A stretch of DNA of 64,000 nucleotides from an uncultured Armatimonadia bacterium (lineage in GTDB: Bacteria; Armatimonadota; Zipacnadia; Zipacnadales; UBA5352): assembly GCA_964484945.1 (NCBI GenBank), contig CAZAHB010000002.1, positions 16-64,015 on the forward strand, read 5' to 3'. Position numbers and translations under genes: made by a program. A model generated the notes under the pieces. The model saw nothing but the letters and a program-made list of their open reading frames with translations, ran no database searches and was not told where the DNA came from. Below are positions 10,950-63,717 of this stretch, one piece after another (positions within the stretch are counted from its first letter, which is position 1; every line of letters starts with the position of its first letter).

Positions 10950-11061
10950 CTGATCTCCTGTGCAGCCGGTAAACGATGGCGCCAGTTTGGCGATTGCCGT
11001 GTTTAGGAAAACGTGAACCTGTTGATTTGTTCCACTTGCGTGCCCGAAAAGCCTTCGTACG

Positions 11062-11243
11062 GGGTCTGTATCAACGATTAGGGGTTACGTTCACAGCGCG
11101 CGTTTGTCGTTCTCCCCCTCGTCCCGCCGGCGATGTCGTCTATCGCAATGGGAGAGGGGGGGAAGCGATGTCGTTTATCGCAGGCGGTGAGGCCCGGCCT
11201 GCCGACGCGTTGTGGGTCAACCCTTAGATTCTGATACGCACCC
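11062..11243. repeat. GC-rich palindromic repeat family 1, full-length copy in reverse orientation
   Basis: Its reverse complement aligns end to end with the copy at 37338..37528: gggtgcgtatcagaatcta...ggccgggcctcacc...cgatagacgacatcgc...gggcgggacgaggggg...ttgatacagaccc. Confidence 0.7.
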
Positions 11244-11521
11244 CTTCGCATGGGCCGCATCCGGTAACACGACACGCCGATCGTAAAAAACTCTGCCGTG
11301 CTCAAAGGACTTCACCGCTCTCGCGAAGAATAATATTGCTTCTACGGTACGTCTCGTGGTGTGACCGGCCCTCTCGCCCTATTGGCCGAAGGATGTCGAA
11401 CCGGTGCGAGAGATTGACACCTATCAACGAATGATCTGTATTCCCGGTCCATGACCTCCGGTCGATTGACCCGGGTCTCCACCGGCGGAACGACAATATC
11501 TCCGCAGTAAGGGAAGAGACC

Positions 11522-31129: not shown

Positions 31130-31456
31130 CGATCGTGGGCCTCCCTGAATCGCAACGCGACCGCTCGGGCCATGCCGAACGCTCGCTGGAGTTTTGCGTG
31201 ATGGCGAGAGGCAGTTCGACGGGGAGCGCGGGGGGACCTGCCGGGTGGGAGGATGGCGGTGGAGCGGGGGAACCTTAAACTTATGTGACAGGCGAAAATT
31301 CATGCGCAAAGGAGAGCGCTCCGGTTTGTATATGAATAGAGGGCGACGGAAACGGCGCGGCAGCAGCGGGCGGCGCGTGGAGGGATTTCCCTTACTCTGC
31401 GTCGGCGGAACGCGCCGTGGGCTCGGTGCCTCATCCTCGGGAGGAAAGGCAACAGC

Positions 31457-31550
31457 GGCCCCACCCCCCTGCGATAGACGACATCGCTTTCCCCCCTCCC
31501 CCTGGACGCCGCAAACGGCGCGGCGTCAGGCGGGAGAGGGGGGCAACGGC
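31457..31550. repeat. GC-rich palindromic repeat family 1, core-only copy
   Basis: ggccccacccccctgcgatagacgacatcgctttcccccctccccctggacgccgcaaacggcgcggcgtcaggcgggagaggggggcaacgg shares the cgatagacgacatcgc and ccctcccc...ggggagg palindromes with other copies. Confidence 0.6.
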
Positions 31551-31584
31551 CAGGGGCGGCCGGGGGGCGGGATGTCGTTGCCCA

Positions 31585-31652
31585 GCCGTTTGGAGGGCCA
31601 AACCCCGCCGCAGGCGTGGGTCGCTACGTCCCCGCCCGCGGGCTACGCTTCC
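31585..31652. repeat. Repeat family 2 (gccgtttggag...ggctacg.ccccgccc), copy 1
   Basis: gccgtttggagggccaaaccccgccgcaggcgtgggtcgctacgtccccgcccgcgggctacgc parallels 52063..52100, gccgtttggagagagcggggctacgaccccgcccgg. Confidence 0.45.
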
Positions 31653-31740
31653 CCGTCGGCTTCACCCTCCCCACCCTCACCCAACTCGCGCCGCATCTGC
31701 TGTATCTGCGCGAGGAGTTCGACCGCGGCGGCGAGGTTGG

Positions 31741-31889
31741 CGGCTGCCGGGCCTCACCCCCCTCGGTCCCCCCTCTCCCTGCTTCCTGACGCTGCAAACG
31801 GCGCAGCGTCAGGCGGGACGAGGGGGGAGGAACGGCCACTGCGTACTGCAAGAGGGAGGATCGCTATACCGGACTCGTGATACGGAGCC
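31741..31889. repeat. GC-rich palindromic repeat family 1, copy with variant right end (gtgatacggagcc)
   Basis: cggctgccgggcctcacccccc...ctgacgctgcaaacggcgcagcgtcaggcgggacgaggggggaggaacggccactgcgtactgcaagaggga...gtgatacggagcc. It lies in tandem with the copy at 31457, separated by the family-2 repeat. Confidence 0.65.
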
Positions 31890-31968
31890 ACGGAAGGCCC
31901 TCTCCCCCACGTCGCGAATAATCACCCGTCGCCCAAACTTTCGTTCAAACACAAAGGGGATAGTTCTC

Positions 31969-34374
31969 ATGCGTCGCTTTATTGCTGCCGCGTGCATAAT
32001 CGCCATCACCGCCACTGTCGCCACCGCCGATAGCTGGCTCCAGCAGGGCTTCGAAGATCCCGGTTCACTGGAGAACTGGGAGGTCGATGACAGTCAGGGA
32101 TGGGCGCGTGTGAGGAGCCTCGACGGCCCCCAGCGCCTCGTGGAGACATTCAACAGCCGCGAGTACAGCACCATCCGCGTGTACGTGCGGCTGCATCGCG
32201 CTACGGGCACCGTGTGGTTTGACAGAGTCGATATCGACTCGCTTGACATAGAGAACTCCGACTTCTCGGAACACGAGGGCGACCGAATCGCCGGTTGGGG
32301 ACAGGACGACGTCGGTGAGACGATCTTCTGGGATGACGAAAAGCTCGGGGCTGGAAGCGTGCGGATATCGCGCACGGATGCAGACGGGATGAGCCGCGTG
32401 TATCAGAACGTCAAGTGCGAGCCTCAAACGGAGTACACCCTCGAGGTCTGGGCCGCCAGCGAAAACCTCCACGGCTCGGCGTACGCCGAGGTCTACGGTG
32501 TCGCCGATGACGGACTGGGAAGCCAACTCGGCTCCACGCAGAATGTGCGCCCTCCTGACGCCACCCTCGGTCAGCGGGCGCTGGCACTGCATCCGCGAGA
32601 GGGCCCGGTGGCTGTGAGCCAGACGGTGGACCCGCGCGGCGACCGCCTCGCGACACTCTCGGTTGAGGTCAACACAGACGCGATGGAGCAGGGCGCGATT
32701 ACGCTCGCGGTGGCGGACGCAAACACCGGCGCGCTGCTCGCCCAAAAGACGCGCGAGGTCGATCCCCTGGCGCGACAGTTCGTGCCCATGCGGCTCGGGT
32801 TCTGCTCACCGGCCCACAGTGCGGCGCAGGTGCGGGTCTCGGTGGCCGGTGACGGGACCGCGCTGCTCGACAACATCACGGTTGGCGATGTCGAGCTTCC
32901 GATACCTCCGCAGAAGATGGACCTGGGCACACTCGCGGATGGCTGTGCGGTGGGCGTGGTCTCGAGCGAGATCGATGACCCGGTGCTTGCGAACGCGGCC
33001 GCGCTTTTCGAGGAAGGGTTGACCACCCGCGCGCCTGATCCGGTGGAGATCGCCGTCACCGGTGGCGCTGTGCAGTGGCCCGACACGGAGCGCTATGAAC
33101 TCGTCGCCGACGCCGATGGCGCGCGCATCACCGCGCCGACCGCGACAGGCGCGGCATACGGCCTGATGACGCTGCTGGACCTCGCGGAAGCCGGCGATGG
33201 ACGCGTCCCTGCCTGCAAGATCGAGGACTGGCCCGCGATGCCCTTCCGCGGCACCTACCGCGGCGGCGTGCCGGGCGGCGATGCCCTCCAGGACTTCTGC
33301 CGACAGTTGATGCGCCTGAAGATGAACGCGGTGGTGATGGAGAGCGGTGTCTGGTACAGCCTTGACGACGAGGATGTCCGGAAGAAGACGCGAGCGTCCT
33401 TCGAGACCCTTCGTGCCTGGGGGATCGAGCCGATTCCCGAGCTTCAGAGCCTCGGGCACGCCTCGCCGCAGCTTTCGCGCAATCCACACGCCGTCGAGGG
33501 CGCCTGGCAGCAGGACGAGGAGCTTACGCTGACCGGGACCGAGCCTGTCGCGCTGGAGCACAACAATTTGCTGCGCACGGAAGCAACCGACATCGTCATC
33601 ACCAGCGAGGACGGGGAGACCACGTTCGTCGAGGGCGAGGACTACGAGATCATCGACGGGGTGACGGACTTTCCCTACAGGCGGGACGCCGAGCCGTATC
33701 GGATCCAGCGCATCGAGGGCGGCGCGATCGCCGATGGCGCGACGGTCCTGGCCTCGTACGATCACGCGGTGAAGATGGGCAGCCGCAATGTCCCCTACTG
33801 TCCGTCGGAGCCTGCGGTGTACGATATCCTGTTCCCCGCCATCGAGGATATCATCACATATCTGGAGCCGAAGACGTTGCACATCGGCCACGATGAGCCG
33901 CGGATCGTCAACTCCGACAGCCGCTGCCTCAAGCGCGACATGACCGGCGGGGAGCTTCTGGCAGAGGATATCACGAAGCTCAACGACTTCGCGCACTCCG
34001 TGGACGGGGACGTCACGCTGATGATGTGGGCCGATGCGCTGAACCCCTATCACAACGGGACGTGGTTCAGCGGCGAGGATGAGCACCAGCTTGACCTCGT
34101 CCCGAAAGACGTGGTGCAGAACATCTGGTTCTACGGCCCGAAGCAGCCGCTCTCACACGGTCGCGACAGCTTCGAGCACTTCCAGCGCTACGGCTTCACC
34201 TTCACCGGCTCCCCGTGGGATGACACCACCTGCTGCCGCAACTGGGGGATCGTGGCCGGAGAGGCGCGGCGTAAGGGCATGAACTGCCCTGGTTTGCTCT
34301 ACACAAGCTGGAGCGGCCGCTGGGCGGGCCTTGAGACGATGGCGTCCGTGGCCTGGAACCCGCCGCGGGAATGA
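31969..34374 (+). CDS. Secreted glycoside hydrolase family 20-like protein (beta-N-acetylhexosaminidase-like) with N-terminal CBM-like module
   Basis: Signal peptide MRRFIAAACIIAITATVATA. The RBS aaagggga precedes the ATG at 31969. ACKIEDWPAMPFRGTYRG matches the start of the GH20 catalytic domain (I.D.PRF.YRG). The ORF-track start at 31417 runs through repeats and is rejected. Confidence 0.55.
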   Translation: MRRFIAAACIIAITATVATADSWLQQGFEDPGSLENWEVDDSQGWARVRSLDGPQRLVETFNSREYSTIRVYVRLHRATGTVWFDRVDIDSLDIENSDFSEHEGDRIAGWGQDDVGETIFWDDEKLGAGSVRISRTDADGMSRVYQNVKCEPQTEYTLEVWAASENLHGSAYAEVYGVADDGLGSQLGSTQNVRPPDATLGQRALALHPREGPVAVSQTVDPRGDRLATLSVEVNTDAMEQGAITLAVADANTGALLAQKTREVDPLARQFVPMRLGFCSPAHSAAQVRVSVAGDGTALLDNITVGDVELPIPPQKMDLGTLADGCAVGVVSSEIDDPVLANAAALFEEGLTTRAPDPVEIAVTGGAVQWPDTERYELVADADGARITAPTATGAAYGLMTLLDLAEAGDGRVPACKIEDWPAMPFRGTYRGGVPGGDALQDFCRQLMRLKMNAVVMESGVWYSLDDEDVRKKTRASFETLRAWGIEPIPELQSLGHASPQLSRNPHAVEGAWQQDEELTLTGTEPVALEHNNLLRTEATDIVITSEDGETTFVEGEDYEIIDGVTDFPYRRDAEPYRIQRIEGGAIADGATVLASYDHAVKMGSRNVPYCPSEPAVYDILFPAIEDIITYLEPKTLHIGHDEPRIVNSDSRCLKRDMTGGELLAEDITKLNDFAHSVDGDVTLMMWADALNPYHNGTWFSGEDEHQLDLVPKDVVQNIWFYGPKQPLSHGRDSFEHFQRYGFTFTGSPWDDTTCCRNWGIVAGEARRKGMNCPGLLYTSWSGRWAGLETMASVAWNPPRE

Positions 34375-34487
34375 GGGGCGGATCGTATGGCGTTGTCGTG
34401 CGGCCCGGGAACGACCGGGCCAGCATCGCGCAGGTAAACGACAACGGCACAGGCTGGCACGGGGGCCAGCCTCTCCAACGACAAAGG

Positions 34488-35795
34488 ATGACAGCTATGC
34501 CAGAACCCGATGGCCCGCGCCCGAACATCATCCTCGCGATGACCGATGACCAGGGATGGGGGGATGCCGGTTTCAACGGCCACCCCGTGCTGCAGACCCC
34601 GCACCTTGACGAGATGGCCGAGGCGGGCCTGCGCTTCGATCGGTTCTACGCCGGCGCGCCGGTGTGCTCGCCAACGCGCGGAAGCTGTCTCACCGGCCGC
34701 CACCCGTGGCGCTACGGCATCCTTTTCGCCAACTTCGGCCCGCCCGACGAGCCCTCGAAGTATCCGCTGCCCATGCCCGAGGTGACGCTCGCCGAGGCAG
34801 TGAGCGATCTCGGCTACGAGTGCGGGCACTTCGGCAAGTGGCACCTCGGCGATTTCGAGGGGCCGATGAAGTCCGCACCCGACCAGAGTGGCTTCGACGA
34901 CTGGCTCTCCACCGTGCGGAAGGTCGCGACAGTTGATCCGGAGGGCTACTGGGATAACGGGGAGCCGGTCGCGGGGGCGCTGGAGGGCGATGATTCGCGC
35001 ATCATCATGGACCGGGCGCTGCGGTTCATCGAGGGCGCGGTCGATCGCGAGCACCCGTTCCTTGCGGTTATCTGGTTCCATACGCCCCACCTGCCGGTCT
35101 TCGCCACCGACCAGTTCCGCGCGCTTTACGAGGATCACCCCGAGCAGTGCCAGCACTACTGGGGCGCGCTGAGCGCGATGGACGCGCAGATGGGGCGCCT
35201 GCGGTCGGCGCTGCGGGAGATGGGCGTGGCGGATGACACGATCCTGTGGTTCTGCTCGGACAACGGGCCCGAGGGCGACGCGCAGACCGAGGAGCGCCCG
35301 GGCTCCGCGGGTGACTTCCGGGGGCGCAAGCGCAGCCTCTGGGAGGGCGGTATCCGCGTCCCCGCGATCCTCGAGTGGCCGGAGCGCGTCACCGAGCCTT
35401 GCGCCACCGACCTGCCCTGCTGCACCTCCGACTTCTACCCGACGCTGATGGATGTGCTCGGCTATGAGCCGCCGAAGCAGCCCCGCCCGATCGACGGTGT
35501 GAGCCTGGTGGATCTGATCGATGGCGACATGCAGGGCCGGCCCATGGCGATGGCTTTCGAGACGCTGGAGGGCACCACTCGGGGTTCACCGAGCACCGCG
35601 CTGATCGGGAATCGGCACAAGCTGCTGATGGACCCGGACGGCGAGCCGGTGCTGCTGCATGACCTGCTGGACGATCCGGCAGAGGAGCAGGACCTCTCCG
35701 CGGACCGCCCGGATGTGGTGGAGACTATGCGGGCGACGTTGCAGGGTGAGCGCGACTCGTGGGCGCGGTCAAGAGACGGGGAGGATTACCTCTGA
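34488..35795 (+). CDS. Cys-type sulfatase (formylglycine-dependent arylsulfatase family)
   Basis: The sulfatase signature CSPTRGSCLTGR (C-x-P-x-R) follows NIILAMTDDQGWGD. A GKWHLG block is also present. Confidence 0.85.
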   Translation: MTAMPEPDGPRPNIILAMTDDQGWGDAGFNGHPVLQTPHLDEMAEAGLRFDRFYAGAPVCSPTRGSCLTGRHPWRYGILFANFGPPDEPSKYPLPMPEVTLAEAVSDLGYECGHFGKWHLGDFEGPMKSAPDQSGFDDWLSTVRKVATVDPEGYWDNGEPVAGALEGDDSRIIMDRALRFIEGAVDREHPFLAVIWFHTPHLPVFATDQFRALYEDHPEQCQHYWGALSAMDAQMGRLRSALREMGVADDTILWFCSDNGPEGDAQTEERPGSAGDFRGRKRSLWEGGIRVPAILEWPERVTEPCATDLPCCTSDFYPTLMDVLGYEPPKQPRPIDGVSLVDLIDGDMQGRPMAMAFETLEGTTRGSPSTALIGNRHKLLMDPDGEPVLLHDLLDDPAEEQDLSADRPDVVETMRATLQGERDSWARSRDGEDYL

Positions 35796-35810: not shown

Positions 35811-37241
35811 CTACCCCAACTCCTCGCGCGCCCGGTCCACGATCACGCGCATCTGTGCAAGTTGCTCCTCGCGGCCTTCGGGCTTCTCGTACGCATCCAG
35901 CAGCGCGTCCACGCGGTCCGCGGTCTCTGCGAGGAGCGCCTCCTCGCGATCGAAGCCCGCGTAGCCCGAGCGGTCGATCAGGTCCGGCAGCCACACGCTG
36001 TCGCGGAAGCGCTTCGCGGTGTGCATCGTCTCCAGGTGGCTCTCCCCTATTCCCAACCCCACCTGCAGGATCTCATCCAGCGCAAGGTTCTCCGGACTCG
36101 GGTCGAATGTGCGCGTCAGGTGCGCGCTGCCCGAGGCGAACTCGCGGTCCAGCAGAAGCTGCACCGCCGAGAGCTTCTTGCCCTCATCGACCATCCCGCC
36201 CCCCGATGACAGCGACTGTCCGGTGAAGGCCGTCACCACCGCCGACTTGTACGCCTTCTCCAGCGCCGCGTACAGGCCCGGGACCCTGGCGTCACAGTAC
36301 TCGCCCGAGCCCATCGGGATGGTCATCCCGCACCAGCGGCGGATGAACTCCACGCACGCGAAGCCGTAGTAGAGCGCATCCCAGGCGGCGTAACTGACCG
36401 CCCCGGTGCCCATGTCCACCGTGCCCGGCCACATACTGCCCCGCAGGGGGACCTCCGGGTTCACGCCGCGAGCGGCCATCCACGTGGCCACGAATTCTGC
36501 GGTCGAGACCGCGACGAAGCCCTCGGCCGTCACCGGGGTCGAGACACCCGCGACCGGCATCGCCGTCAGCCCGCAGGGCTCACCGGCCTTCGCGCGGAGG
36601 ACGTACTTCCCGGCGAGGTCGCGGTCCATGCGCAGCGGATGGGCGAAGCACACCGCGCCCCACGCGAACCAGTCCTCCAGCCCCAGCACCTCCCCCATCT
36701 CGCGCAGCCACGGGATCTGATCGGCATGCCACGCGAAGGGACCGTGCGGCCTGTGGGCGTACTCCGCCAGCAAGAGGCCCGCCTCCAGCGGCTCGAGCAT
36801 CGGCGGCACATCCGTCAGCGACAGCGCATGCCCGACACCGCGCTCGCGGTGCAGGGCGTCGCCGAACTTGATGAGGGTGGTCAGGTCGTCGCGGTTGGCC
36901 TGGCGCTCCTCGCCCGTGCGGTGGTCCTCGTAAAGCTGCGCGACCTGCGTGCCGACCACCGGCAGCGAGGGAGCGCCGAGAGTCATTCGGTCCTCCGCGG
37001 CACCTGCGGGGCGGGCTTGCGGCCCGCCATGCTCTTCGCGAACGCCTTCCATGAACTCCGCGGTCAACTCGCGCGGGAAGTAGACGCGCTCGTCGGGGTA
37101 GCTGACCTCTGCGCCCATCGCCTCCATCCCCCGCATGAGTTCCTCGTTCTGACACAGCGCCCCGACCTCTTCGAGAATGGTCAGGACCGCGTCGGCCAGT
37201 GGCTCGATGTGCTCGTCCCTGATGATCGCGCGCTGGAACAT
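35811..37241 (-). CDS. MttB-superfamily (trimethylamine methyltransferase family, non-pyrrolysine) methyltransferase
   Basis: The N-terminus IRDEHIEPLADAVLTILEEVGALCQNEELMRGMEAMGAEVSYPDERVYFPRELTAEFM matches the MttB-family N-terminal block. That block is lseeqlerIh.asl.iLeevGv.v.....lell...Ga.vd..rvrfp..lve. The protein is about 476 aa, with no in-frame TAG. The start is set at MFQRA (37241). Confidence 0.65.
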   Translation of the reverse strand: MFQRAIIRDEHIEPLADAVLTILEEVGALCQNEELMRGMEAMGAEVSYPDERVYFPRELTAEFMEGVREEHGGPQARPAGAAEDRMTLGAPSLPVVGTQVAQLYEDHRTGEERQANRDDLTTLIKFGDALHRERGVGHALSLTDVPPMLEPLEAGLLLAEYAHRPHGPFAWHADQIPWLREMGEVLGLEDWFAWGAVCFAHPLRMDRDLAGKYVLRAKAGEPCGLTAMPVAGVSTPVTAEGFVAVSTAEFVATWMAARGVNPEVPLRGSMWPGTVDMGTGAVSYAAWDALYYGFACVEFIRRWCGMTIPMGSGEYCDARVPGLYAALEKAYKSAVVTAFTGQSLSSGGGMVDEGKKLSAVQLLLDREFASGSAHLTRTFDPSPENLALDEILQVGLGIGESHLETMHTAKRFRDSVWLPDLIDRSGYAGFDREEALLAETADRVDALLDAYEKPEGREEQLAQMRVIVDRAREELG

Positions 37242-37337
37242 GGCAGATGCCTCCCGTCTGGAGTCGTGGTTGGAATGAGGTTCACCCTTCGGGAGGAAAT
37301 CCCCTTTTATCCTGGCGCCCGCTACACATTGCAAGGA

Positions 37338-37528
37338 GCGTATCAGAATCTAATGGGTTGACCCACAACGCGTCGGCAGGCCGGGCCTCACCCCCCTGCG
37401 ATAAACGACATCGCTTCCCCCCCTCTCCCTGGCGATAGACGACATCGCGGGCGGGACGAGGGGGGAGGAACGGTAACTGCGTACCGCAAGAGGGAAGTAT
37501 CGCCATCCATAACTCTTAATACGGACCC
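37338..37528. repeat. GC-rich palindromic repeat family 1, full-length reference copy (about 190 bp)
   Basis: gcgtatcagaatctaatgggttgacccacaacgcgtcggcaggccgggcctcacccccctgcgataaacgacatcgcttccccccctctccctggcgatagacgacatcgcgggcgggacgaggggggaggaacggtaactgcgtaccgcaagagggaagtatcgccatccataactcttaatacggaccc. The ends are imperfect inverted repeats (GCGTATCAGAA / TTAATACGGACCC). Confidence 0.7.
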
Positions 37529-37601
37529 ACATTGCAAGGACCCGCCCCTGCTTCTATCGAACCTCCCATCACCACCGACCAGGCCGCCTGGAGGCTGTCC
37601 C

Positions 37602-39527
37602 ATGAAGCGCACGCTCATCGCTGTCATCGCGGTCGCGCTGCTCTCCCCCACTCTCGCCGGCGCGCAGGATTTCGACACTCATCCGCGCGTTATCGCCGGC
37701 TACACCGGCGCGTTCCTCGGCGACGAGGACGAGCGCTGGCGGGACTATCTGCCGCTGCTGGCCGAGCACGGCTTCACCGCCGTGGACTTGAAGCTCCATC
37801 CGAAGAACTTCCCGCTCGACGATGATGCCGCGATGCGCGAGTTCGTCCACGAGGTAGCGAATTCCGTCGATGAGGCGGGACTGGACTTCTACGTGTATCT
37901 GTATGACCGCGGCGCCAAGCGCGATCCGGAAAGCGACGCTCACCTCCCCGCGTTCATGGCAAAGGATGGGTCGGTCAACCCGAACATGTACTGTCTCTAC
38001 TCGCCGGAGGTCTGGCTTGCGCTTTTCGAGCGCGTCTTCTGGATGGCCGAGCGTTCCAACGAGGTTCCCATCGCGGGCGTGAAGATCGACATCGAGCACC
38101 TGCAGAATTACCGGCCATGTGTGTGCGATTCGTGCTTCTACGGCTTCGCGCGGGAGTGTACCGTGGATGAGGGCCTGGTGATCGACTGGGACCGGGAGAC
38201 GGTCGCGCCCGACCACCGCTGGGCGTGGATCGCCGAGCACGGTGGCGAGGAGGCATACATGGCCTACCTCGAATCGCGCGTGGACGAGGCCGCGAAGCAG
38301 TACGAGGCCCGCGCGCATGCGATCAACCCCGACCTGCAACTGGGCATGATGCCGGTCCGCGACTCACACCTGCACCGCCCCTGGATGACGCACCTGGCCA
38401 CCGAGCGCGCGCCGGCGATCAACGACTCGTGGGCGATGTACGGAGGCCTCGGCTGGAGGGACGCGGTCGCCGAGGTCCAGCGGTTCGTGAAATCCCTCAA
38501 CCCGCACAACCGTTTCGTGCCATGGTTCCGGCCGAATAACTACCGGCCCGAGGACATGGGCCGGCACGCCTTCGTCGCGGCGGTGCAGGCGGATGGGTAC
38601 AACCTGTGGCAGCTCAATATGCTCCACCCCGACCAGCCGCGCTCGCACGTCGCGGCGTACTCGCTCCCGACCGATTACGAGGACCCGATGGCGTACTGGG
38701 AGGCGCTGGGCGAGGCGAACGTGCGGGTGAGCGAGTGGCTGGGCGATCCGCATGAGATCGAGTACGAGCCGATCGAGATGCTGGTGGAGCGCGCGGACAC
38801 CGGGGGCGTGAGCATCCCGGACCTGCAGCCGATGTGGGAGGGGCCGTCCTCGATGCAGGAACCGCGACTTGCGACCGGCCTGCGCGGGGTCAACACGATC
38901 TACATCCATGTGAGCGACCCGGCGGAGCCGATTCGGGCGCTGATCCGTCACGTGGCGGGCGACCGGCGGCCGAAGCCGATCGCGTGGGCGCTGGCGGAGG
39001 GCCCCGACCGGCCAATCGCGGAGGGGCGGGTGGAGCCGGGCGAGACCGTGGACCTGTCGCTGGAGGTGGAGCGAGCGGGGGTGTACGCGCTGGTGATCCA
39101 GGCGCAGGAGGGCGGCGGCCCGTGGTATTCGGTGCGGGTACCCTCACATCCTTACGGAATCGACGCCTCCGGTGAGGCCTACTACTTCCGGCGCAGCCCG
39201 AAGCAGTACGTCTGGGTGCCGGAGGGCCTCGAGAGCTTTCGGGTCCGCGCGGAGACCGGCGGCCACAATCAGGAGATGCGGGTGCAGGTCTGGCGGCCCG
39301 ATGGTGAGCGCACCCTCGACCATGTGGTGAACTCGGATGTGGCGCACCGGGAGACGCTGGAGGTGGCGGTGCCGGAGGGCATGTCGGGTGCGGTGTGGTC
39401 GCTGAAGGTCGGCGCACCGGAGGAGGTCGCGCCCACGCACTACTCGGAGAACTACTGGGTGCGGGTGATGGACGCCGAGCCGTGGCTGGCGGCGCGGCCG
39501 GGGGCGGTGCTGGGGCGGGAACGCTGA
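37602..39527 (+). CDS. Secreted hypothetical protein (glycoside-hydrolase-like TIM-barrel suspected)
   Basis: Signal peptide MKRTLIAVIAVALLSPTLAGAQD. A 641-aa protein with no motif I can name confidently. Confidence 0.45.
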   Translation: MKRTLIAVIAVALLSPTLAGAQDFDTHPRVIAGYTGAFLGDEDERWRDYLPLLAEHGFTAVDLKLHPKNFPLDDDAAMREFVHEVANSVDEAGLDFYVYLYDRGAKRDPESDAHLPAFMAKDGSVNPNMYCLYSPEVWLALFERVFWMAERSNEVPIAGVKIDIEHLQNYRPCVCDSCFYGFARECTVDEGLVIDWDRETVAPDHRWAWIAEHGGEEAYMAYLESRVDEAAKQYEARAHAINPDLQLGMMPVRDSHLHRPWMTHLATERAPAINDSWAMYGGLGWRDAVAEVQRFVKSLNPHNRFVPWFRPNNYRPEDMGRHAFVAAVQADGYNLWQLNMLHPDQPRSHVAAYSLPTDYEDPMAYWEALGEANVRVSEWLGDPHEIEYEPIEMLVERADTGGVSIPDLQPMWEGPSSMQEPRLATGLRGVNTIYIHVSDPAEPIRALIRHVAGDRRPKPIAWALAEGPDRPIAEGRVEPGETVDLSLEVERAGVYALVIQAQEGGGPWYSVRVPSHPYGIDASGEAYYFRRSPKQYVWVPEGLESFRVRAETGGHNQEMRVQVWRPDGERTLDHVVNSDVAHRETLEVAVPEGMSGAVWSLKVGAPEEVAPTHYSENYWVRVMDAEPWLAARPGAVLGRER

Positions 39528-40043: not shown

Positions 40044-41768
40044 TTACATCATCACCGTACAGTCCAGATCAAGCGTCGCGTGCTCGACGGCTTCGGCAGT
40101 CTCGATCGCCACGAACGGCACCTCGTGATCGACCTCGACCCGCACGCTCACCGGCTCGGACGGCGTCGCGCAGATGTGCAGTTCGGCGGGACCGTTGCGG
40201 ATGATAATGCAATCCTCGCGCACCCGCGCCTCGGCGTCCGGATCGTAGTGTAACAGCCACGTGAGTGTCGCGGGATGCGTGGGCTGCACCTCGTCGGCGA
40301 TGCCAACAGTTGGCGACTCGCCGAGAGTAACCTCGAAGGCCCGGCGATGCAGCTTAAGGCCGTCCCTTTCTGCCCGCACTTCCACGGTCATGTACTTCCG
40401 ATCGCCGAGATCCTCCAGCCGGGTGATTTCCGCCTGCTGCTCGAAGCCACCGGTCTGACCTTCCCCATCGACGAGAACGCAGTTGTGGCCGATGGTCTCT
40501 TTGCCGTAGGTGAACTGATAGTGCGTCCAGTAATCTTTCGAGTAGGTCGGGCAGCCCGGGTCCACGATGAGTCCGCGCCCCCCGGCGCGCAGCAGGAAGG
40601 TGCCGAGGTCGTAATGCGTGTGCGTCATCGCGTTGTTGCCCGCGCGCGCCGCCAGCAGGAAGCCGTCGGATTCGGTCAGGTCAGAGCGCAGGATGCCCCA
40701 GCCGGCGCCATGGAATGCGCGCGAAGGCTGAAGGTCGGCGGGTGGCTCGGCCGACAGGTCCGGGTCGTGCCAGATAAACGCCAGCGGGCTGTCGGACTGC
40801 AGGCGGTCGGCGAGCCACTGCAGATGCGGATCCTCGAAGAGGCGGGCCAGGCACCGCAGAGGCGCCTCCATCCGCGAGGCCTCCTGCACGTGGGTGTCTC
40901 CGAAGTTGACGACGTATTTGTCGCCCTGGACGCAGTAGAGCGGGAAGTAGCCGGTTCGGGAGAGGTTCGGAAGGCCGGCGTGGCGGCACTTCGGGATCTC
41001 GTGCAGCCTGTCTGCGTGGCGCCATCGGAGGGTCGGAGGCAGATCATCAGCGCGGAGCCGAAGTGCCTCCATGAGCGGCAACGCGTGTTCCATCCCGAAG
41101 GCCCAGTAGTTGCCACCCTCGTTGGTGCTGCCATCGTCATTCACCCATGTGAGGTAGCGGCGCAGGTGATAGACGCAGCGTTCGAGGATGTACTCGTGAA
41201 AGGGCTCGCGATCGATGAGCAGCAACGACATCAGGCCCGCGCCACTGACCATGACCGCGACCCAGTTATTCACATTGTCGCGGAAGAATGAGAGCGGTGC
41301 GTCCATGTCGTGGAGCAGTGGCTCAACGGCCTTCTTCCGATGGTGATCGGCGATGCGGTCGATCTCGTTGTCATCGACGGCCGCGGCGCACCAGTCGAGG
41401 TAGTGTGCCAGCGACTGTGTAACGACCCCGGTCATCAGTCCGTATCTGCGGCCGAGATCGAGGTGGACGGGATCGCACCAGCAGTCCCATTCGAGGATCG
41501 CGTCCACGCTTGCTTTCGCGCGGTGATGGAAGTCATCCTCACCGGTCAGAAGGAATGCGAGTGCGCAGCGCTGGATGGTGTCCATGCGGCGGCTGGCGCT
41601 CCCCAGGTGGGCGCCCCAGAGACTTTCGGGATCAGGCTGGGGGACCGGCTGCTCGAGGCATTCGCGCGCCGAGGCGATGATGCGCTCGCGCCTCTCCCCC
41701 ATCGCACCATCGGCTGCGCGGAGTCGCTCGAGTTGAGCGTCGGTCACCAACAGGTTGCGTTGAATCAT
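40044..41768 (-). CDS. Heparinase II/III-like family protein (polysaccharide lyase-like)
   Basis: A 574-aa protein, cytoplasmic, with no signal peptide. The alpha-helical N-terminal half and beta-rich C-terminal half are separated by ...AMTHTHYDLGTF..., which resembles the Hepar_II_III catalytic His/Tyr region. Tentative. Confidence 0.5.
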   Translation of the reverse strand: MIQRNLLVTDAQLERLRAADGAMGERRERIIASARECLEQPVPQPDPESLWGAHLGSASRRMDTIQRCALAFLLTGEDDFHHRAKASVDAILEWDCWCDPVHLDLGRRYGLMTGVVTQSLAHYLDWCAAAVDDNEIDRIADHHRKKAVEPLLHDMDAPLSFFRDNVNNWVAVMVSGAGLMSLLLIDREPFHEYILERCVYHLRRYLTWVNDDGSTNEGGNYWAFGMEHALPLMEALRLRADDLPPTLRWRHADRLHEIPKCRHAGLPNLSRTGYFPLYCVQGDKYVVNFGDTHVQEASRMEAPLRCLARLFEDPHLQWLADRLQSDSPLAFIWHDPDLSAEPPADLQPSRAFHGAGWGILRSDLTESDGFLLAARAGNNAMTHTHYDLGTFLLRAGGRGLIVDPGCPTYSKDYWTHYQFTYGKETIGHNCVLVDGEGQTGGFEQQAEITRLEDLGDRKYMTVEVRAERDGLKLHRRAFEVTLGESPTVGIADEVQPTHPATLTWLLHYDPDAEARVREDCIIIRNGPAELHICATPSEPVSVRVEVDHEVPFVAIETAEAVEHATLDLDCTVMM

Positions 41769-46159: not shown

Positions 46160-46560
46160 TCGACGCCATCTTAGCAGCATAGCGTCATGCCGTCAAACAG
46201 CTTCCCTGTTATAGTTGTACAGCGTTATGCTGTCAGGCCATGAACGAAGTAAGGGGTTAAGACATTAAAACAGGGATCGGATGGGCCTGCGCATTATGCT
46301 GTTATAACATGGAAAGACGGCGTATAGCAGCAGAAAGACGCGTCATGGCATATGGCGCGATTTAGAGGAATAATGTTTTAACAGCATAAGTGCACGATGG
46401 CGAATGGTCGGGCTGAGAACCGCACCTGCTGGCAAGAGTAGAAAACGAGAAAACAGCAAAACGGTAGAACCCGATAACAGTACAACAGCAGAAGCTTAAA
46501 AGGCAAAAACGAGGGCTCGTTAGAGAGGGATAAGCCGGGCGGTGGCGGAGTAGAAGGGAT
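46160..46560. repeat. AT-rich region with iterated ACAGCAT/ATGCTGT-containing repeats (candidate centromere-like/iteron site) upstream of parA
   Basis: GC content is markedly lower than the surroundings. The motifs are ttagcagcatagcgtcatgcc, cgttatgctgtcagg, cattatgctgttataacatgg, tagcagcagaaagacgcgtcatggc and ttttaacagcataagtg. Confidence 0.5.
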
Positions 46561-46564
46561 GGAG

Positions 46565-46769
46565 GGTTTGTATCAAAAGTCTAATGATTGTCTTCTGCCG
46601 TGCTGCGGCTGCCGGGCCTCACCCCCCTGCGATAAACGACATCGCTTTCCCCCCTCTCCCTTGTCCCGCCGAAACGGCAGGCGGGACTGGCGGGACGAGG
46701 GGGGAGGAACGACAACTGCGTCCCTGCAACAGGGAATTATCGCTATCCTTAACTCTTGATACGGACCCC
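46565..46769. repeat. GC-rich palindromic repeat family 1, full-length copy with cccgccgaaacggcaggcggg inner hairpin
   Basis: gggtttgtatcaaaagtctaatg...gctgccgggcctcacccccctgcgataaacgacatcgc...cccgccgaaacggcaggcggg...gggacgaggggggaggaacgacaactgcgtccctgcaacagggaattatcgctatccttaactcttgatacggaccc. Confidence 0.7.
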
Positions 46770-52581: not shown

Positions 52582-53946
52582 TTAACTCATCGCCATCCCC
52601 GCGACCTCGAGTATGACCGCTTCCGCGATGGCCTTCGTGGTCTCGCAGGACGTGCGGGCAGTCGCGTCTCCGCTGGCAAGGAAATCCGCGCCGATACAGC
52701 CGCTGCACAGAGGGGCCGCCCAGCACTGCGAACACTCAGAATGCGCGTCCCTGTCACACGCGTTGACCACCGGCGCGACCTCCGACAGGCGCTCGTCGGT
52801 GATGCGACCGTCCTCGGTGAACCGCGCCACGCGGAAGTCGTCCTCGCCCGCGAACATGAAGCACGGGTACAGGTATCCCTCCGGGTCGATCGCCATCGTG
52901 CCTGAGCCGGCGGGGCAGTAGGCCGCGATCGGCTCACGGGTGCGCAGGGCGTCCATCACCCGCCAGGAGAAGCTGTTCGCGCGGGCGCGGCCCTCGATGA
53001 GCTGCTGCACCGAGTACCGCGCGGCCTCCGCGTACACCTCGGCCTTCACCTCGTCGGGGAGGTAGAGCGCGCTGCCCTCGGGCGCGGATACGTGGGCGAT
53101 GTGCGTGACGCCGCGGTCGTAGCGCTCGGAGAAGAAGTCGATGAGGTCCACCACCGAGATGCCCTGCTCGAGGTGCTCGGGGGTGTACGTGCACTCGAAG
53201 TCCACCGCGATGTCGCCTGCGTCGAGGCAGCGGCGGGCGAACTCGTCGGCGGCCTCGAAGCTACCCTCCCCGCGCAGCGCGTCATGCACCTGCGGCGGGC
53301 CGTCGATGCTGATCGTGGCTGAGATGTCGTAGCGCCGCATCATCTCCATGGGGCCCTCGCCGCCGAGCACTCCGTTCGTGACCATCGCGAAGCGCGGAAG
53401 TTCGTCGATGTGCCCCTCATCGCGGAGGGCCCTGCAGTACTCGCACACCTGGAACATCAGCTTCGGATTCAGGAGCGGCTCGCCGCCGAAGAACTGGATC
53501 GTGCGCACGCCGCCGAAGTTGCCCACCGCCCAGTTGATCGCGGTCATGGCGATCTCGCGCGGCATGTCATCGCGGGGGCGGCCGTAGCAGCCACCGTCGG
53601 CGTAGCAGTACACGCAGCGGAGGTTGCAGTCGTGGGTGACGTGCAGCACCAGGCGGTTGAGGCGCCCGTCCTCGCAATCGCAGTTGTCGCGCGAGGCTGC
53701 GCCGGGGTCCTCGGGAAGGTCTGCAAGCTGCGAGACAGCTTCTTCCGGACACTGCTCCGCGCAGGAAAGGTCCTCGCACGCGTCAGGATCGGCCTCAGTG
53801 ATTTGCGGCAGGTCAGGGAGGGGGTTGCCCGCCTGCAGTGCCGCCAGCGTCTCCTCGTGCAATCCGAGCGCGAGCATAGTATCTGGCAGGAAGACCGCGT
53901 GGCGGTCGCCGTCCGATATGAGGTGTGCGGATGGGCGCGTGTTCAA
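52582..53946 (-). CDS. Radical SAM/SPASM-domain protein (peptide/protein-modifying maturase type) with about 100-aa Cys-containing N-terminal extension
   Basis: The radical SAM motif is HDCNLRCVYCYADGG (CxxxCxxC). The C-terminal SPASM is CPAGSGTMAIDPEGYLYPC...CSQCWAAPLCSGCIG. The N-terminal extension carries CEDLSCAEQCPEE...DNCDCEDG. It lies directly downstream of two CXXX-repeat Tat proteins. Confidence 0.85.
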   Translation of the reverse strand: MNTRPSAHLISDGDRHAVFLPDTMLALGLHEETLAALQAGNPLPDLPQITEADPDACEDLSCAEQCPEEAVSQLADLPEDPGAASRDNCDCEDGRLNRLVLHVTHDCNLRCVYCYADGGCYGRPRDDMPREIAMTAINWAVGNFGGVRTIQFFGGEPLLNPKLMFQVCEYCRALRDEGHIDELPRFAMVTNGVLGGEGPMEMMRRYDISATISIDGPPQVHDALRGEGSFEAADEFARRCLDAGDIAVDFECTYTPEHLEQGISVVDLIDFFSERYDRGVTHIAHVSAPEGSALYLPDEVKAEVYAEAARYSVQQLIEGRARANSFSWRVMDALRTREPIAAYCPAGSGTMAIDPEGYLYPCFMFAGEDDFRVARFTEDGRITDERLSEVAPVVNACDRDAHSECSQCWAAPLCSGCIGADFLASGDATARTSCETTKAIAEAVILEVAGMAMS

Positions 53947-56085: not shown

Positions 56086-56691
56086 ATGAGGCGACGAGGG
56101 TTTACCCTAATCGAATTGCTGGTTGTGATTGCGATTATCGCGATCCTGGCCGCAATCCTGTTCCCGGTTTTCGCCCGGGCGCGGGAGAAGGCCCGACAAT
56201 CGAGTTGTTCGAGTAACGTCAAGCAGATTTGTCTGGCGGTGCACATGTACGTCCAGGACTACGATGAGAGGATGCCCATGGCGGTTGCCGGTGTTCCGCC
56301 GGCGATCTGGACATTCGAGGAGCTGCTCAATCCGTACATCAAGAACGAGCAGCTCTGGGACTGCCCCAGCAAGCCGCGGTCGGTAGACCTGTCGCAGCTT
56401 GGAAAGCCTAATGTGAGCTACATGGTCGATGTCGGTACACCATTCCCGTCAGGATCGAGCACAGGTCGCCTGTTCGGCGCACCGGCGGCAGGGACGTCCT
56501 CATGCAGCCTGGCCCAGATCGAGCAGCCGGCCACTACTCCGATCATGTGTGATGCAGAGGGCTCTGTAGATGCCTCCTTCACAATCGACATCAGCGAGGC
56601 TCCGCGGCATAATGACGGCTGCAACTACGGCTTTGCGGACGGTCACGTAAAGTGGGATCGACCCGAGAAGATTGATATCAGACTGGAGTAG
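56086..56691 (+). CDS. Prepilin-type N-terminal cleavage/methylation domain protein (DUF1559)
   Basis: N-terminus [38 protein letters not shown]. The C-terminal [13 protein letters not shown] is H-X9-DG. Confidence 0.85.
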
Positions 56692-56730
56692 CAGGTCGGG
56701 AAGGGGACCCTGAAAAGGCAACGACGACGG

Positions 56731-56839
56731 CGCCCCTCCCCTGCGATAGACGACATCGCTGGCGGGACGAGGGGGGAGGAACGGCAACTGCGTACTGCAA
56801 GAGGGAATTATCGCTACTATTGACTTTTGATACGGACCC
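56731..56839. repeat. GC-rich palindromic repeat family 1, 5'-truncated copy
   Basis: cgcccctcccctgcgatagacgacatcgctggcgggacgaggggggaggaacggcaactgcgtactgcaagagggaattatcgctactattgacttttgatacggaccc. Confidence 0.65.
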
Positions 56840-61740: not shown

Positions 61741-62729
61741 TATTCTCTTGCGGCCAGGGCCACGGCCCTGAGATTCTCCGTCGGCGTCGTCAGCGGCACC
61801 GCGCACTCCGGTGCGATGATCTCCACGCCCGCCGCAAGCGCCTCCCGCACCTGTTCCGCCACATCCTCCGGCGTCCCCATCAGTAATGTTCGCGGATTGT
61901 TGATGTTGCCCATCAGCGCGATCCGATCGCCTGCCGCCCAGCGGGCCTTTGCCGCGGGGACCTGCGACTCGAAATGAAAACACTCCAGCCCACTGCGCGA
62001 TATCCATGGAATCCTATCCAGAGTGTCACCACAGATATGCAGAATCACCGGGCCCGGTATCGCCCGCGCAAGCTTCTTATGCAGCGGCCACAGGAAATCG
62101 CGGTACATCTCCGGTGCAACCAGATCGCCCGTGGCGTGGTCGGCCAGCGTCACCACGTCCGCGCCCGCCTCGAACTGCTCCCGCGCGAAGAGGCCCGGCA
62201 GAGCGACCAGCGCCTGCAGAATCCTGTGCACCTCGCCCGGATCATCGAGCGTCATCATCAGGAAGCGCTCGACACCGAAGAGGTGATACGCGAGCGTCCA
62301 CGGGCCGAAGACCTTCCCCACCAGCGCTACCTCCGGATAGCGCTCGCGGAGGACCCGCAGCGCGTCCGTGACCACCGTCAGCGACGGGTGGCGCAGGATA
62401 TTGGCCGGGAGGTCGATGTCAGCGGCGGTCGAGCACGGATGAACGGTGACCTCCGGCATCAGGTCAACGCGCCCCCAGTCCACCTCACAGCCCAGTGCAT
62501 CGGCCTCATGCTGGACGCTGAAGACCGGTGCGATCGTGTCATAGCCGAGGATATCATGCCCAGCCGCGGCGAGGCCCGCCATCGTCTCCGCGTCGGTGTG
62601 CGCGTCCGGGAAGAAGCGTCCGGTCGCCTCCATCAGTTCCACCGTGGCGATGGAGACGGCATTGCCTACCGCCGGCGGATCAGTGAAGTTTCCCTGGAGG
62701 GCCTTCAGAATACGCTTGCGCGGCGTCAT
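61740..62729 (-). CDS. URO-D-family methyltransferase (MtaA/CmuA-like, canonical length 329 aa)
   Basis: TPRKRILKALQGNFTDPPAVGNAVSIATVELMEATGRFFPDAHTDAETMAGLAAAGHDILGYDTI follows the MtaA/URO-D N-terminal pattern. ILHICGD and LMGNINNP blocks are also present. Confidence 0.7.
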   Translation of the reverse strand: MTPRKRILKALQGNFTDPPAVGNAVSIATVELMEATGRFFPDAHTDAETMAGLAAAGHDILGYDTIAPVFSVQHEADALGCEVDWGRVDLMPEVTVHPCSTAADIDLPANILRHPSLTVVTDALRVLRERYPEVALVGKVFGPWTLAYHLFGVERFLMMTLDDPGEVHRILQALVALPGLFAREQFEAGADVVTLADHATGDLVAPEMYRDFLWPLHKKLARAIPGPVILHICGDTLDRIPWISRSGLECFHFESQVPAAKARWAAGDRIALMGNINNPRTLLMGTPEDVAEQVREALAAGVEIIAPECAVPLTTPTENLRAVALAARE

Positions 62730-62952
62730 TGGCGACTCACCCGGTTATCGCGAGAGTTGCGGGACGGGAATACCTTCGACGCGGAGGGGGCTGAATCATG
62801 CGTTGAGGCGGGAAACACACCGTCGTCTCATTCTCCCGCATGTGATTAAACTTCACCTCCTCATACGACGGACGCCCCGCGCCCGAAAGGTCCCCTCGCT
62901 GTCCCCCGCGAATCCTTGTGCGCCTCAGGAGCCTCACACAGGGAGCCCACTG

Positions 62953-63717
62953 ATGCCCGAGCGCGAACCGCTTACCGCCGCAATCATCACCCAGGATGAG
63001 CCCTTCGTGGTCCCGTTGCTGCTGGATCACCTGCTGGTCGAGAAGAACGACCGCATCGCCGCCATCTTCGTGGCCGAGAACCCGCAGGCCGAGGGGCTGA
63101 TGGCCACCATCCGCCGCTGGGGATCGGTCTTCGATCCACTGACATTCGTGCGCTACGGTTTCCGCTACGTCCGGGCGAAGCTGTCGGGCGCGGACCCCGC
63201 GAAGGTGGCGCGCAAGTACGATGTTCCGATTCGGCCGGTCGAGAACGTCAACGCCCCGGGGGTTATCGATGACCTGCGGGAGATGGGCGTGGACCTGGTT
63301 ATAAGCGTTTCGTGCCCGCAGATCCTCGAGTCGGAGCTTCTGTCGATGCCGGCGGAGGGCTGCATTAATGTCCACGCGGGTCCGCTGCCGCGTTATCGAG
63401 GGATGCTTCCGACCTTCTGGGTGCTGTATGAGCGCGAGGCCGAGACGGCGGTGACAGTGCACTACATGAACGAAGAACTCGATGACGGGCCGATCATCCT
63501 GCAGGAGACGGTGCCGATTCGCGAGGACGAGACGCAGGCAAGCCTGATGCGCCGGTGCAAGATCGTCGGCGCCCGCCTGTTGAGCCAGACGATAGACCTG
63601 ATCGAGATGGACCAGGTACAGCCGGAGCCGAATCCGAGCGAGGAAGCGACGTATTACTCATTCCCGAGCCCGCAGCAGGCCCGGGAGTTTCGCGCATTCG
63701 GCGGGCGCTGGATGTAG
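62953..63717 (+). CDS. Formyltransferase-family protein (Fmt/PurN-like N-terminal domain)
   Basis: VDLVISVSCPQILESELLSMPAEGCINVHAGPLPRYRGMLPTFWVLYE matches the formyl_trans_N catalytic block (d..v.......il......p..g.iN.H.slLP.yRG..p..wai..g). The start is set at MPEREP (62953). Confidence 0.65.
   Translation: MPEREPLTAAIITQDEPFVVPLLLDHLLVEKNDRIAAIFVAENPQAEGLMATIRRWGSVFDPLTFVRYGFRYVRAKLSGADPAKVARKYDVPIRPVENVNAPGVIDDLREMGVDLVISVSCPQILESELLSMPAEGCINVHAGPLPRYRGMLPTFWVLYEREAETAVTVHYMNEELDDGPIILQETVPIREDETQASLMRRCKIVGARLLSQTIDLIEMDQVQPEPNPSEEATYYSFPSPQQAREFRAFGGRWM

Follow-up and report, generated by a model that had tools for sequence, protein, structure and literature searches.

The closest described relatives of the gene reported here are the pyrrolysine (Pyl) containing methyltransferase MttB of Methanosarcina barkeri (structures 7XCL and 7XCN), the non-pyrrolysine MtgB of Desulfitobacterium hafniense (2QNE and 9YCE) and a putative trimethylamine methyltransferase of Sinorhizobium meliloti (4YYC), a further non-Pyl member of the MttB superfamily whose substrate is unknown. 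In MtgB the trimethylammonium group of glycine betaine is held by Y97 and F356 and its carboxylate by R312 and H348; R312 is kept in all characterised members of the superfamily, whereas the aromatic pair Y97/F356 is not conserved outside MtgB (PMC13080624). In the complex of MttB with MttC, Met249 swings away upon docking of the corrinoid and Gly372 makes a hydrogen bond to it (PMC9842639). In a second group of proteins, those of the URO-D fold, every known member that is not a decarboxylase serves as MT1 or MT2, and the MT1 enzymes among them carry out corrinoid-dependent methyl transfer (PMC13222342). The gene in question lies on the minus strand at positions 35811 to 37241 of a stretch of 64,000 nucleotides (nt; here called the window, about 64% G+C) from contig CAZAHB010000002.1 of an uncultured Armatimonadia bacterium, and its product of 476 amino acids (aa) belongs to an undescribed branch of this known superfamily, differing from the systems above in active site, in partners and in genomic context.

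The gene is a single open reading frame (ORF) with an ATG start and no internal stop, and its translation is identical to a database protein of equal length. Against the profile PF06253 (MTTB) the protein scores 117.2 bits (E=6.7e-34, cutoff 25), with residues 6-476 matched to positions 33-500 of the 500 in the profile. The AlphaFold2 (AF2) model, built on 117 homologs, is of high predicted quality (predicted local distance difference test score, pLDDT, 95; predicted template modelling score, pTM, 0.92), and in a Foldseek search of the Protein Data Bank (PDB) it found significant matches only in MtgB (2QNE/9YCE), 4YYC and MttB (7XCL), at template modelling (TM) scores of 0.70-0.75 and E values from 1e-18 to 1e-22, although each of these is a mere 17-20% identical to it. 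The full-length match together with the predicted MttB-type TIM barrel establishes the protein as a deeply divergent member of the MttB superfamily (PF06253 / COG5598). A preliminary description of this DNA, made from its letters alone, was therefore right about the superfamily and too narrow about the match, which it had confined to an N-terminal block. The protein has no signal peptide and would therefore be cytoplasmic.

MtgB is the best structural match (TM 0.75, E 2.6e-22), and shares with the target the PF06253 TIM barrel with a C-terminal extension, the lack of pyrrolysine and the acidic residues E249, E328 and D206 that occur superfamily-wide. It differs in being only 20% identical (56 bits) and, above all, at the substrate site. 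When a profile of the 117 homologs, which make up the close clade of the target, was aligned with MtgB, 4YYC and MttB, the four glycine betaine contacts Y97, R312, H348 and F356 of MtgB fell on Q99, P309, S346 and G354 of the target, every one of them replaced, and a separate MAFFT alignment gave the same result for three of the four positions. Within the clade the R312 column holds Pro in 86 members, Ala in 11, Thr in 6, Gly in 4 and Arg in 3 of the 117, whilst Q99 is Gln in 112 of them and G354 is invariant. The aromatic residues that would give a cation-pi contact (Y97 and F356 in MtgB) are also absent from the target, a weaker test than that of the arginine, the pair being specific to MtgB. 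By this alignment the quaternary-amine site is lost in the target. In 4YYC, which gives 98 bits to the clade profile, the Arg and the aromatic residues of quaternary-amine type are by contrast retained.

The substrate put forward in the preliminary description, choline, betaine or another quaternary amine, is not supported, given these replacements. It is very unlikely that the protein is nonetheless a quaternary-amine:corrinoid methyltransferase of the MtgB/MtpB/MtcB/MtyB type, with choline, glycine betaine or a similar osmolyte of host or algal origin as its substrate, for apart from the replaced contacts and the low score with MtgB, the 78 gene neighbourhoods considered below contain no corrinoid/MT2/RamA operon (judged there by genes other than that of the activase) and no transporter for betaine or choline. 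Such an assignment does have common descent on its side, since all the characterised non-Pyl members of the same superfamily use quaternary amines (PMC13080624; PMC8604678). What an operon of the expected sort looks like is seen at a control locus from the same scan, L095 (Peptococcaceae, its MttB homolog 24% identical), where URO-D, CobW, RACo activase, a PocR/AraC regulator, two corrinoid proteins, the MttB homolog and an SSF transporter form the full canonical set.

Comparison with MttB gives a different picture from that with MtgB. The fold is again the same (TM 0.73), and Pyl334 of MttB aligns with Tyr315 of the target, which is Tyr in 117 of the 117 clade members and Leu in both MtgB and 4YYC. 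Around it the MttB motif GS-Pyl-SDAKVP reads GE-Y-CDA[KR]VP, with Arg in the target and Lys in the clade consensus, so that G-x-[Pyl/Tyr]-x-D-A-[KR]-V-P aligns residue for residue. Together with the uninterrupted reading frame this bears out the description of the gene as a non-pyrrolysine member. Met249, Lys348, Gly372 and the Gln of 'EQLVI' in MttB correspond to M228, K329, G354 and Q361, and M228 and G354, the counterparts of the two residues described for the MttB-MttC complex, are invariant (117/117); being widely kept in the superfamily they would be permissive for a corrinoid contact and are not proof of one. The differences from MttB are a target without UAG codon or pyrrolysine, a score of 100.3 bits for the Pyl-MttB equivalog TIGR02369 against a cutoff of 525, the alignment of MttB Tyr364 with the variable S346, the lack of an mttC-like corrinoid gene beside the target, and hosts of the Tyr-type proteins that are bacterial glycan degraders and not methanogens. 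A tentative match of MttB Gly110-Thr111 to G97-T98 was left unused, as G97-T98 vary, and a PDB search with residues 86-243 alone, made in order to map that MttB pair, gave no match.

The tyrosine marks a branch wider than the close clade. A search through all of 1.84 billion cluster representatives returned 1865 relatives at E<=1e-3, whose identity to the target declines smoothly from 51% to 22%, and Tyr occupies the pyrrolysine column in 57 of 101 full-length representatives. Tyr-type proteins usually also have E150, M228, W254, D276, E328, K/R329, K/R332, G354, Q361 and W417. MtgB and 4YYC deviate at most of these signature columns and MttB shares the M, K, G and Q at four, so at the signature positions the branch looks closer to MttB than to MtgB. 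Within the close clade there is in addition an invariant set of polar and aromatic residues that have no counterpart in MtgB and 4YYC, namely D106, H138, E150, W171, C198, H201, R204, W254, W271, D276, Y284, E314 (Asp in 10 of 117), K329, K332, Q361 and W417, and in the AF2 model these sit at or just past the ends of the β-strands, where the active sites of TIM barrels lie. A clade zinc site made of Cys198, His201, Cys316 and Glu314, by analogy with MtaB, was considered and dropped as a mechanism, its residues varying across the wider Tyr-type branch.

The genomic setting of the branch was studied for the close clade in the Pfam-annotated neighbourhoods of eight homologs and in 78 loci from species-representative genomes (about 1.2 Mb), where ORFs were clustered and the recurrent clusters annotated. 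Close-clade members are 46-78% identical to the target and all come from metagenome-assembled genomes (MAGs), several of them from digesters, sediments and anoxic springs; the hosts are Armatimonadota (Armatimonadia, Zipacnadia), Planctomycetota, Lentisphaerota/Victivallales, Kiritimatiellota, Verrucomicrobiota, Anaerolineae, WS1 and Hebobacteria. Two archaeal members, L074 from a Brockarchaeota MAG and L076 from a Nitrososphaerota MAG, are 52-57% identical to the bacterial protein, which points to horizontal transfer or binning contamination. The commonest neighbours among the 78 loci encode URO-D-like proteins (18 by clustering, and 20 within 10 kb by hidden Markov model, HMM) and Gfo/Idh/MocA dehydrogenases (15), followed by DUF1559 (10), glycoside hydrolase (GH) family GH123 (9), sulfatases (8), ceramidase-like proteins on a weak match (8), DegT aminotransferases (6), Zn-dependent alcohol dehydrogenases (5), xylose-isomerase-like TIM barrels (5) and GH141 (4). 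The preliminary description had placed the gene among sulfatase and glycan-degradation genes, and this holds both in the window, with its sulfatase bearing a CSPTR motif and its GH20b-like and heparinase-like neighbours, and beyond it: across the 78 loci and at least six phyla the link to glycan degradation is a family-wide property and not a local accident.

Some of these associations are tight. In Planctomycetota and Hebobacteria the GH123 gene stops 0-11 nt 5' of the MttB-like gene, and locus L013 runs in the order GH123, MttB-like, URO-D-like (1 nt past the stop), sugar-binding protein and two ABC permeases. Co-directional URO-D-like genes separated by gaps of 1-139 nt are found at five loci from three phyla (L045 and L052 in Planctomycetota, L061 in Kiritimatiellota, L023 and L025 in Zipacnadia), and some MAGs hold two copies of the MttB-like gene on different contigs (for example L022/L024, L026/L070 and L054/L065). 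A sister Tyr-type clade, 25-30% identical to the target, has Gfo/Idh/MocA genes in 13 of 40 loci and URO-D-like genes in 7, as well as DegT aminotransferases, a Peripla_BP_4 sugar ABC system and a ROK regulator. In 15 of the same 40 loci a protein of about 110 aa is encoded directly 5' of the MttB homolog, often after Gfo/Idh/MocA (within L104-L133, for example L109 7598-7987 and L122 7661-7993); it has no Pfam match, and with its motifs MQFDHVGIPT...VEWL...PHVGF...IELV it looks like a metalloenzyme of VOC/glyoxalase fold.

At a few loci the same gene families do stand next to corrinoid proteins. In L140, on one strand, the order is DUF6259, URO-D-like, DUF6259, corrinoid protein (B12-binding_2 plus B12-binding), xylose-isomerase-like barrel, Tyr-type MttB homolog, FGGY sugar kinase, a protein of no known kind, URO-D-like, xylose-isomerase-like barrel and URO-D-like. 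This MttB homolog, which has the tyrosine in the pyrrolysine column, gives 137 bits with the target at 26% identity, as against 56 bits for MtgB, and the locus is probably from Anaerolineae because the nearest homologs of its corrinoid protein are so named. The two DUF6259 proteins (L140 66-2450 and 3605-6010, about 800 aa each) flank a URO-D-like gene directly 5' of the corrinoid gene, and their common domain may be one that acts on glycans or processes methyl donors without having been recognised as such. At L127 a Tyr-type gene is followed, after 4 nt, by two further MttB paralogs and a corrinoid protein gene. Lastly, in an Armatimonadetes MAG (L181) the gene for a 215-aa corrinoid protein overlaps the URO-D-like gene L181_U386 and is followed by a LacI-type regulator, a second URO-D-like gene and an ABC importer, so Armatimonadota do encode stand-alone corrinoid proteins. 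L181_U386 gives 85.5 bits with L013_U, the URO-D-like protein whose gene adjoins the MttB-like gene of L013, and by such similarities the URO-D-like subfamilies beside the target clade are those that are coupled to corrinoid proteins in L140 and L181.

The window itself has three genes of this fold. Two are paralogs (A and B) that are 68% identical, each adjoining a DUF1559 pilin-like gene, and show D-S-D and H-T-D-H at the zinc-ligand positions of MtaA; their nearest informative relative is L140_U456, the URO-D-like protein encoded between the two DUF6259 genes (29% identity and 167 bits for A, 156 bits for B). The third, a 329-aa protein, exceeds the thresholds of the MtaA/CmuA family (TIGR01463, 269.1 bits against 235.4; NF004889, 279.5 against 244), gives 187 bits with Methanosarcina mazei MtaA (4AY7) and carries the motifs ILHICGD and APECAVP, in which we take the His-x-Cys...Cys positions to be the zinc ligands of MtaA. 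An identity as HemE was rejected for it, as NCBIfam and PDB searches led to the MtaA/CmuA family and the hemE model gave only 57 bits. No corrinoid gene adjoins it in the window. Hence, where the preliminary description counted three URO-D/MtaA-like partner candidates, the three ORFs exist and one passes the family cutoffs, and their role as specific partners is unsupported: they lie 14-35 kb from the MttB-like gene (paralog A at 34 kb, the 329-aa gene at 24.5 kb) and none adjoins it. URO-D-fold methyltransferases in general, whether like the MT2 enzymes MtaA and MtbA or like the MT1 enzymes CdmB and the aryl-O-demethylases, remain candidate partners of the clade.

The MtaA/CmuA gene is divergent from a Formyl_trans_N gene, a pairing seen again in L096 (9060-11029), where the MtaA-like protein is 82% identical to that of the window and is encoded beside exopolysaccharide (EPS) biosynthesis genes. 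A more distant MtaA/CmuA homolog, L097, stands beside a sulfatase and a Fucose_iso_C protein. No corrinoid gene is adjacent to the MtaA/CmuA homologs in the window or in the relatives checked, L096 included.

Taken together, the evidence points to a methylated sugar or to an entirely different substrate, alternatives that the preliminary description had also named, rather than to choline or betaine. The reading that we favour, tentatively and at somewhat less than an even chance, is that the target works in the cytoplasm as a corrinoid-dependent methyltransferase, that its methyl donor derives from glycans and is not a quaternary amine, and that its corrinoid protein is encoded elsewhere; that it depends on a corrinoid, what it acts on and which way the methyl group moves are all things that we only infer. 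On this proposal secreted hydrolases, lyases and sulfatases would act on the glycan, and the methylated compound would be imported. The target, as MT1, would take the methyl group from this compound, for which a methylated sugar, amino sugar or cyclitol is the best guess, and would pass it to a corrinoid protein that several such enzymes share and whose gene lies in another part of the genome. From there URO-D/MtaA-like methyltransferases would hand it on to a thiol or folate acceptor. A substrate of that kind is favoured because dehydrogenases, aminotransferases, isomerase-like barrels, kinases and sugar importers accompany the gene, and methyl transfer with URO-D partners because MttB and URO-D barrels otherwise share no known biology. 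Also in its favour are the full-length profile match with the MttB fold, the invariant M228 and G354, the operonic URO-D-like genes in several phyla, the corrinoid operons of L140 and L127, the URO-D-like subfamilies that recur in both settings, the MtaA/CmuA gene of the window and the sugar-catabolic neighbours. The occurrence of two copies on different contigs in some MAGs would fit a single shared corrinoid carrier. In Eubacterium limosum several MttB-family enzymes use one carrier, MtqC. Ruegeria MtgC is a precedent for a carrier that is shared and unlinked (PMC12478193).

Several observations weigh against this reading, the first being how seldom a corrinoid gene is found. A B12-binding domain was sought in the window by Pfam (main ORFs), by a six-frame scan for DxHxxG..SxL..GG and by phmmer with two real corrinoid proteins, and none was found, in line with the preliminary description, which had no corrinoid gene in view. 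There is no RACo/RamA activase near the target gene, and no cobalamin riboswitch or any other Rfam family in the window, nor around the gene at permissive thresholds. Motif and phmmer searches of the 78 close-clade loci likewise gave no corrinoid gene; that the method works is clear from L095, where such genes were detected. For a RACo activase the search covered the 40 Tyr-type loci of the sister clade and found none. The linkage could be put in numbers with a metagenome scan seeded with a six-sequence subset of the distant Tyr-type group (25-30% identical), which gave 80 loci, Tyr-type and other MttB. A corrinoid protein flanks 1 of 40 Tyr-type as against 19 of 38 other MttB genes (Fisher p=8e-7) in nearly equal amounts of DNA (340 kb and 338 kb), and with the 78 genome loci added the count becomes 1 of 118 against 19 of 38 (Fisher p=5e-13), L140 being in neither group and taxonomy being a possible confounder of the comparison. 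An absent corrinoid gene is thus the rule for the Tyr-type branch and not a gap of this window. It is also a difference from characterised mtgB genes, which are described with cognate corrinoid proteins (PMC13080624, PMC12478193). Such near-total absence would equally be expected if the branch had adopted a different chemistry.

The same direction is taken by the URO-D-like partners, most of which lack the His-x-Cys...Cys zinc ligands of MtaA and are heterogeneous; URO-D-like genes moreover seem generally plentiful in these genomes, with three in this 64-kb window. Their excess within 500 bp of the MttB-like gene, 3.9-fold (p=0.009), is an overestimate, since the gene next to it invariably begins nearby, and the operonic cases are therefore relied on instead. 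Across the Tyr-type branch no conserved metal site is evident, and a literature search found no description of the branch. Finally, alkyl methyl ethers offer poor leaving groups.

A serious rival, which we regard as possible if rather unlikely, is that the Tyr-type branch has left corrinoid chemistry and is now a cofactor-independent or differently cofactored sugar isomerase, epimerase, lyase, dehydratase or hydrolase, whose partners, the Gfo/Idh/MocA proteins, xylose-isomerase-like barrels and DegT, would belong to a keto-sugar pathway. The counts of corrinoid and activase genes just given are in its favour. So are the neighbours that rank highest besides the URO-D-like ones (Gfo/Idh/MocA, the VOC-like small protein of the sister clade, DegT and the xylose-isomerase-like barrels), which make a complete-looking set for oxidation, isomerisation and transamination. 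H138, E150, W171, H201, R204, W254, W271, D276, Y284 and Y315 are in turn typical of sugar-binding pockets, and as a set are absent from MtgB and 4YYC. A departure from corrinoid chemistry must however be reconciled with sole structural relatives that are corrinoid methyltransferases, with the invariance of M228 and G354, counterparts of MttB residues that face the corrinoid, with the recurrent operonic coupling to URO-D/MtaA-like genes, and with the Tyr-type genes that sit within corrinoid operons in L140 and L127.

Corrinoid-dependent methyl transfer might also run in the synthetic direction, methyl-corrinoid being used to methylate a sugar or an exopolysaccharide precursor, and this we hold to be very unlikely. 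Biological sugar methylation normally depends on S-adenosylmethionine (SAM). The genes that prompt the idea, those for the Wza/SLBB export protein and the ParA/AAA_31 ATPase in the window and the EPS genes beside the MtaA-like homolog of L096, are set against neighbours that stay constant across phyla and are catabolic (glycoside hydrolases, sulfatases, sugar ABC importers, kinases and dehydrogenases), while the export genes are kept only among close relatives.

Features of the 64,000-nt window discussed in the text (positions in the window)
Feature	Position	Strand	Evidence or remark
URO-D-like paralog A, 421 aa	342..1607	-	PF01208 48 bits, C-terminal half only
Hybrid histidine kinase, 1247 aa	15628-19371	+	four PAS, GAF, HisKA/HATPase, receiver
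URO-D-like paralog B, 420 aa	20270..21532	-	PF01208 42.6 bits
GH20b-domain protein	31417..34374	+	PF02838 4e-09
Cys-type sulfatase	34371..35795	+	PF00884 2.7e-48, SGSH_C; CSPTR motif at C99
Tyr-type MttB-superfamily protein	35811..37241	-	N-terminus MFQRAIIRDE; PF06253, AF2, Foldseek
Secreted 641-aa protein, unknown family	37602..39527	+	signal peptide MKRTLIAVIAVALLSPTLAGAQ
Heparinase II/III-like protein (polysaccharide lyase family domain)	40044..41768	-	PF07940 2.2e-19
Wza/SLBB export protein and ParA/AAA_31 ATPase	41.8-46.2 kb		syntenic in L005, L007
Overlapping ORF, about 625 aa	50067-51941	+	no Pfam match
Overlapping ORF, about 625 aa	50076-51968	-	no Pfam match
Radical SAM/SPASM protein	52582-53946	-	PapB-type peptide maturase 148 bits; anaerobic sulfatase maturase model 49 bits
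MtaA/CmuA-family methylcobamide-dependent methyltransferase, 329 aa	61740..62729	-	HxC...C zinc motif
Formyl_trans_N gene	62596-63717	+	
Repeat, copy 1	11055-11250	-	
Repeat, copy 2	31402-31562	+	
Repeat, copy 3	37329-37560	+	
Repeat, copy 4	46560-46720	+	
Repeat, copy 5	56674-56834	+	

Around the MttB-like gene in the window the arrangement of genes is as follows. The sulfatase gene is convergent with it, 15 nt separating the two stop codons, and at its own 5' end shares 4 nt with the GH20b-like ORF that precedes it. On the other side the gene for the 641-aa secreted protein is divergent from the MttB-like gene, and a 645-aa counterpart is placed likewise in L005-L007; the 641-aa protein itself has no match in Pfam, NCBIfam or PDB sequence searches. 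The heparinase II/III-like gene is syntenic in L005 and L007. Four DUF1559/N-methyl pilin-like genes are present in the window. The radical SAM/SPASM gene has similar counterparts near the MttB-like gene in L011 and L012. On opposite strands there are also two overlapping ORFs, each of about 625 aa.

A repeat of about 150-190 nt is found 5' of five genes, each copy having the orientation of its downstream gene. The genes 3' of it are those for a 370-aa unknown protein, the GH20b-like protein, the secreted 641-aa unknown protein, a DUF3604-like protein and a GH123_N/LamG protein, and one copy falls within the divergent promoter region that is common to the MttB-like gene. Because a repeat element is present at 31471, the real start of the GH20b-like ORF is probably downstream of about 31560. 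The 17-nt core of the repeat, GCGATARACGACATCGC, occurs in 7 copies in the window as against 0.05 expected by chance; it has 5-nt inverted ends, and the flanking C-rich and G-rich runs could pair. The fold energy of the repeat is no better than that of shuffled sequence (z = 0.28), there is no Rfam match, and the exact core was found in none of 180 loci from other genomes. The element may serve as the operator or leader of a regulon, or may be a repeat peculiar to this genome.

In the literature the nearest functional analogy is a P450 enzyme of marine aerobes, a 6-O-methyl-galactose demethylase that is encoded in polysaccharide-utilisation loci and removes a methyl ether that blocks catabolism; this oxygen-dependent P450 is the sole known sugar demethylase (PMC6292453). 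The analogy is one of function only, for its fold and chemistry are unrelated to those of the target, which would offer an oxygen-independent route. Literature searches found nothing that links MttB- or URO-D-family proteins to glycan loci, to Armatimonadota or to the demethylation of methylated sugars. A paper on Ace Lake deals with a different uncharacterised MttB-like clade, which is linked to MetH modules. A wider proposal, which we consider doubtful, is that the Tyr-type MttB branch and its URO-D-like companions are the oxygen-independent machinery with which anaerobic glycan degraders of the Armatimonadota, Planctomycetota, Lentisphaerota, Kiritimatiellota and Anaerolineae demethylate sugars, amino sugars or cyclitols, the tyrosine taking the activating role of pyrrolysine and one unlinked corrinoid protein, or free cobamide, serving many methyltransferases.

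The branch is set apart by a tyrosine at the pyrrolysine position, by the lack of a quaternary-amine site, by a sugar-catabolic context in at least six phyla and by a linkage to corrinoid genes that is almost nil. If it does carry out glycan-derived demethylation, this would explain how anaerobes handle methylated sugars and would provide an anaerobic counterpart of the P450 sugar demethylases; it would also add a new class of substrate to the corrinoid methyltransferases and, in sediments, digesters and guts, tie the breakdown of polysaccharides to one-carbon (C1) and cobamide metabolism. Should corrinoid chemistry have been abandoned instead, a methyltransferase fold would have been recruited to carbohydrate conversion. 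To our knowledge annotation pipelines give every MttB-family member the label 'trimethylamine methyltransferase family protein', and in either case metagenomic surveys that count PF06253 matches as methylamine or betaine utilisation over-count.

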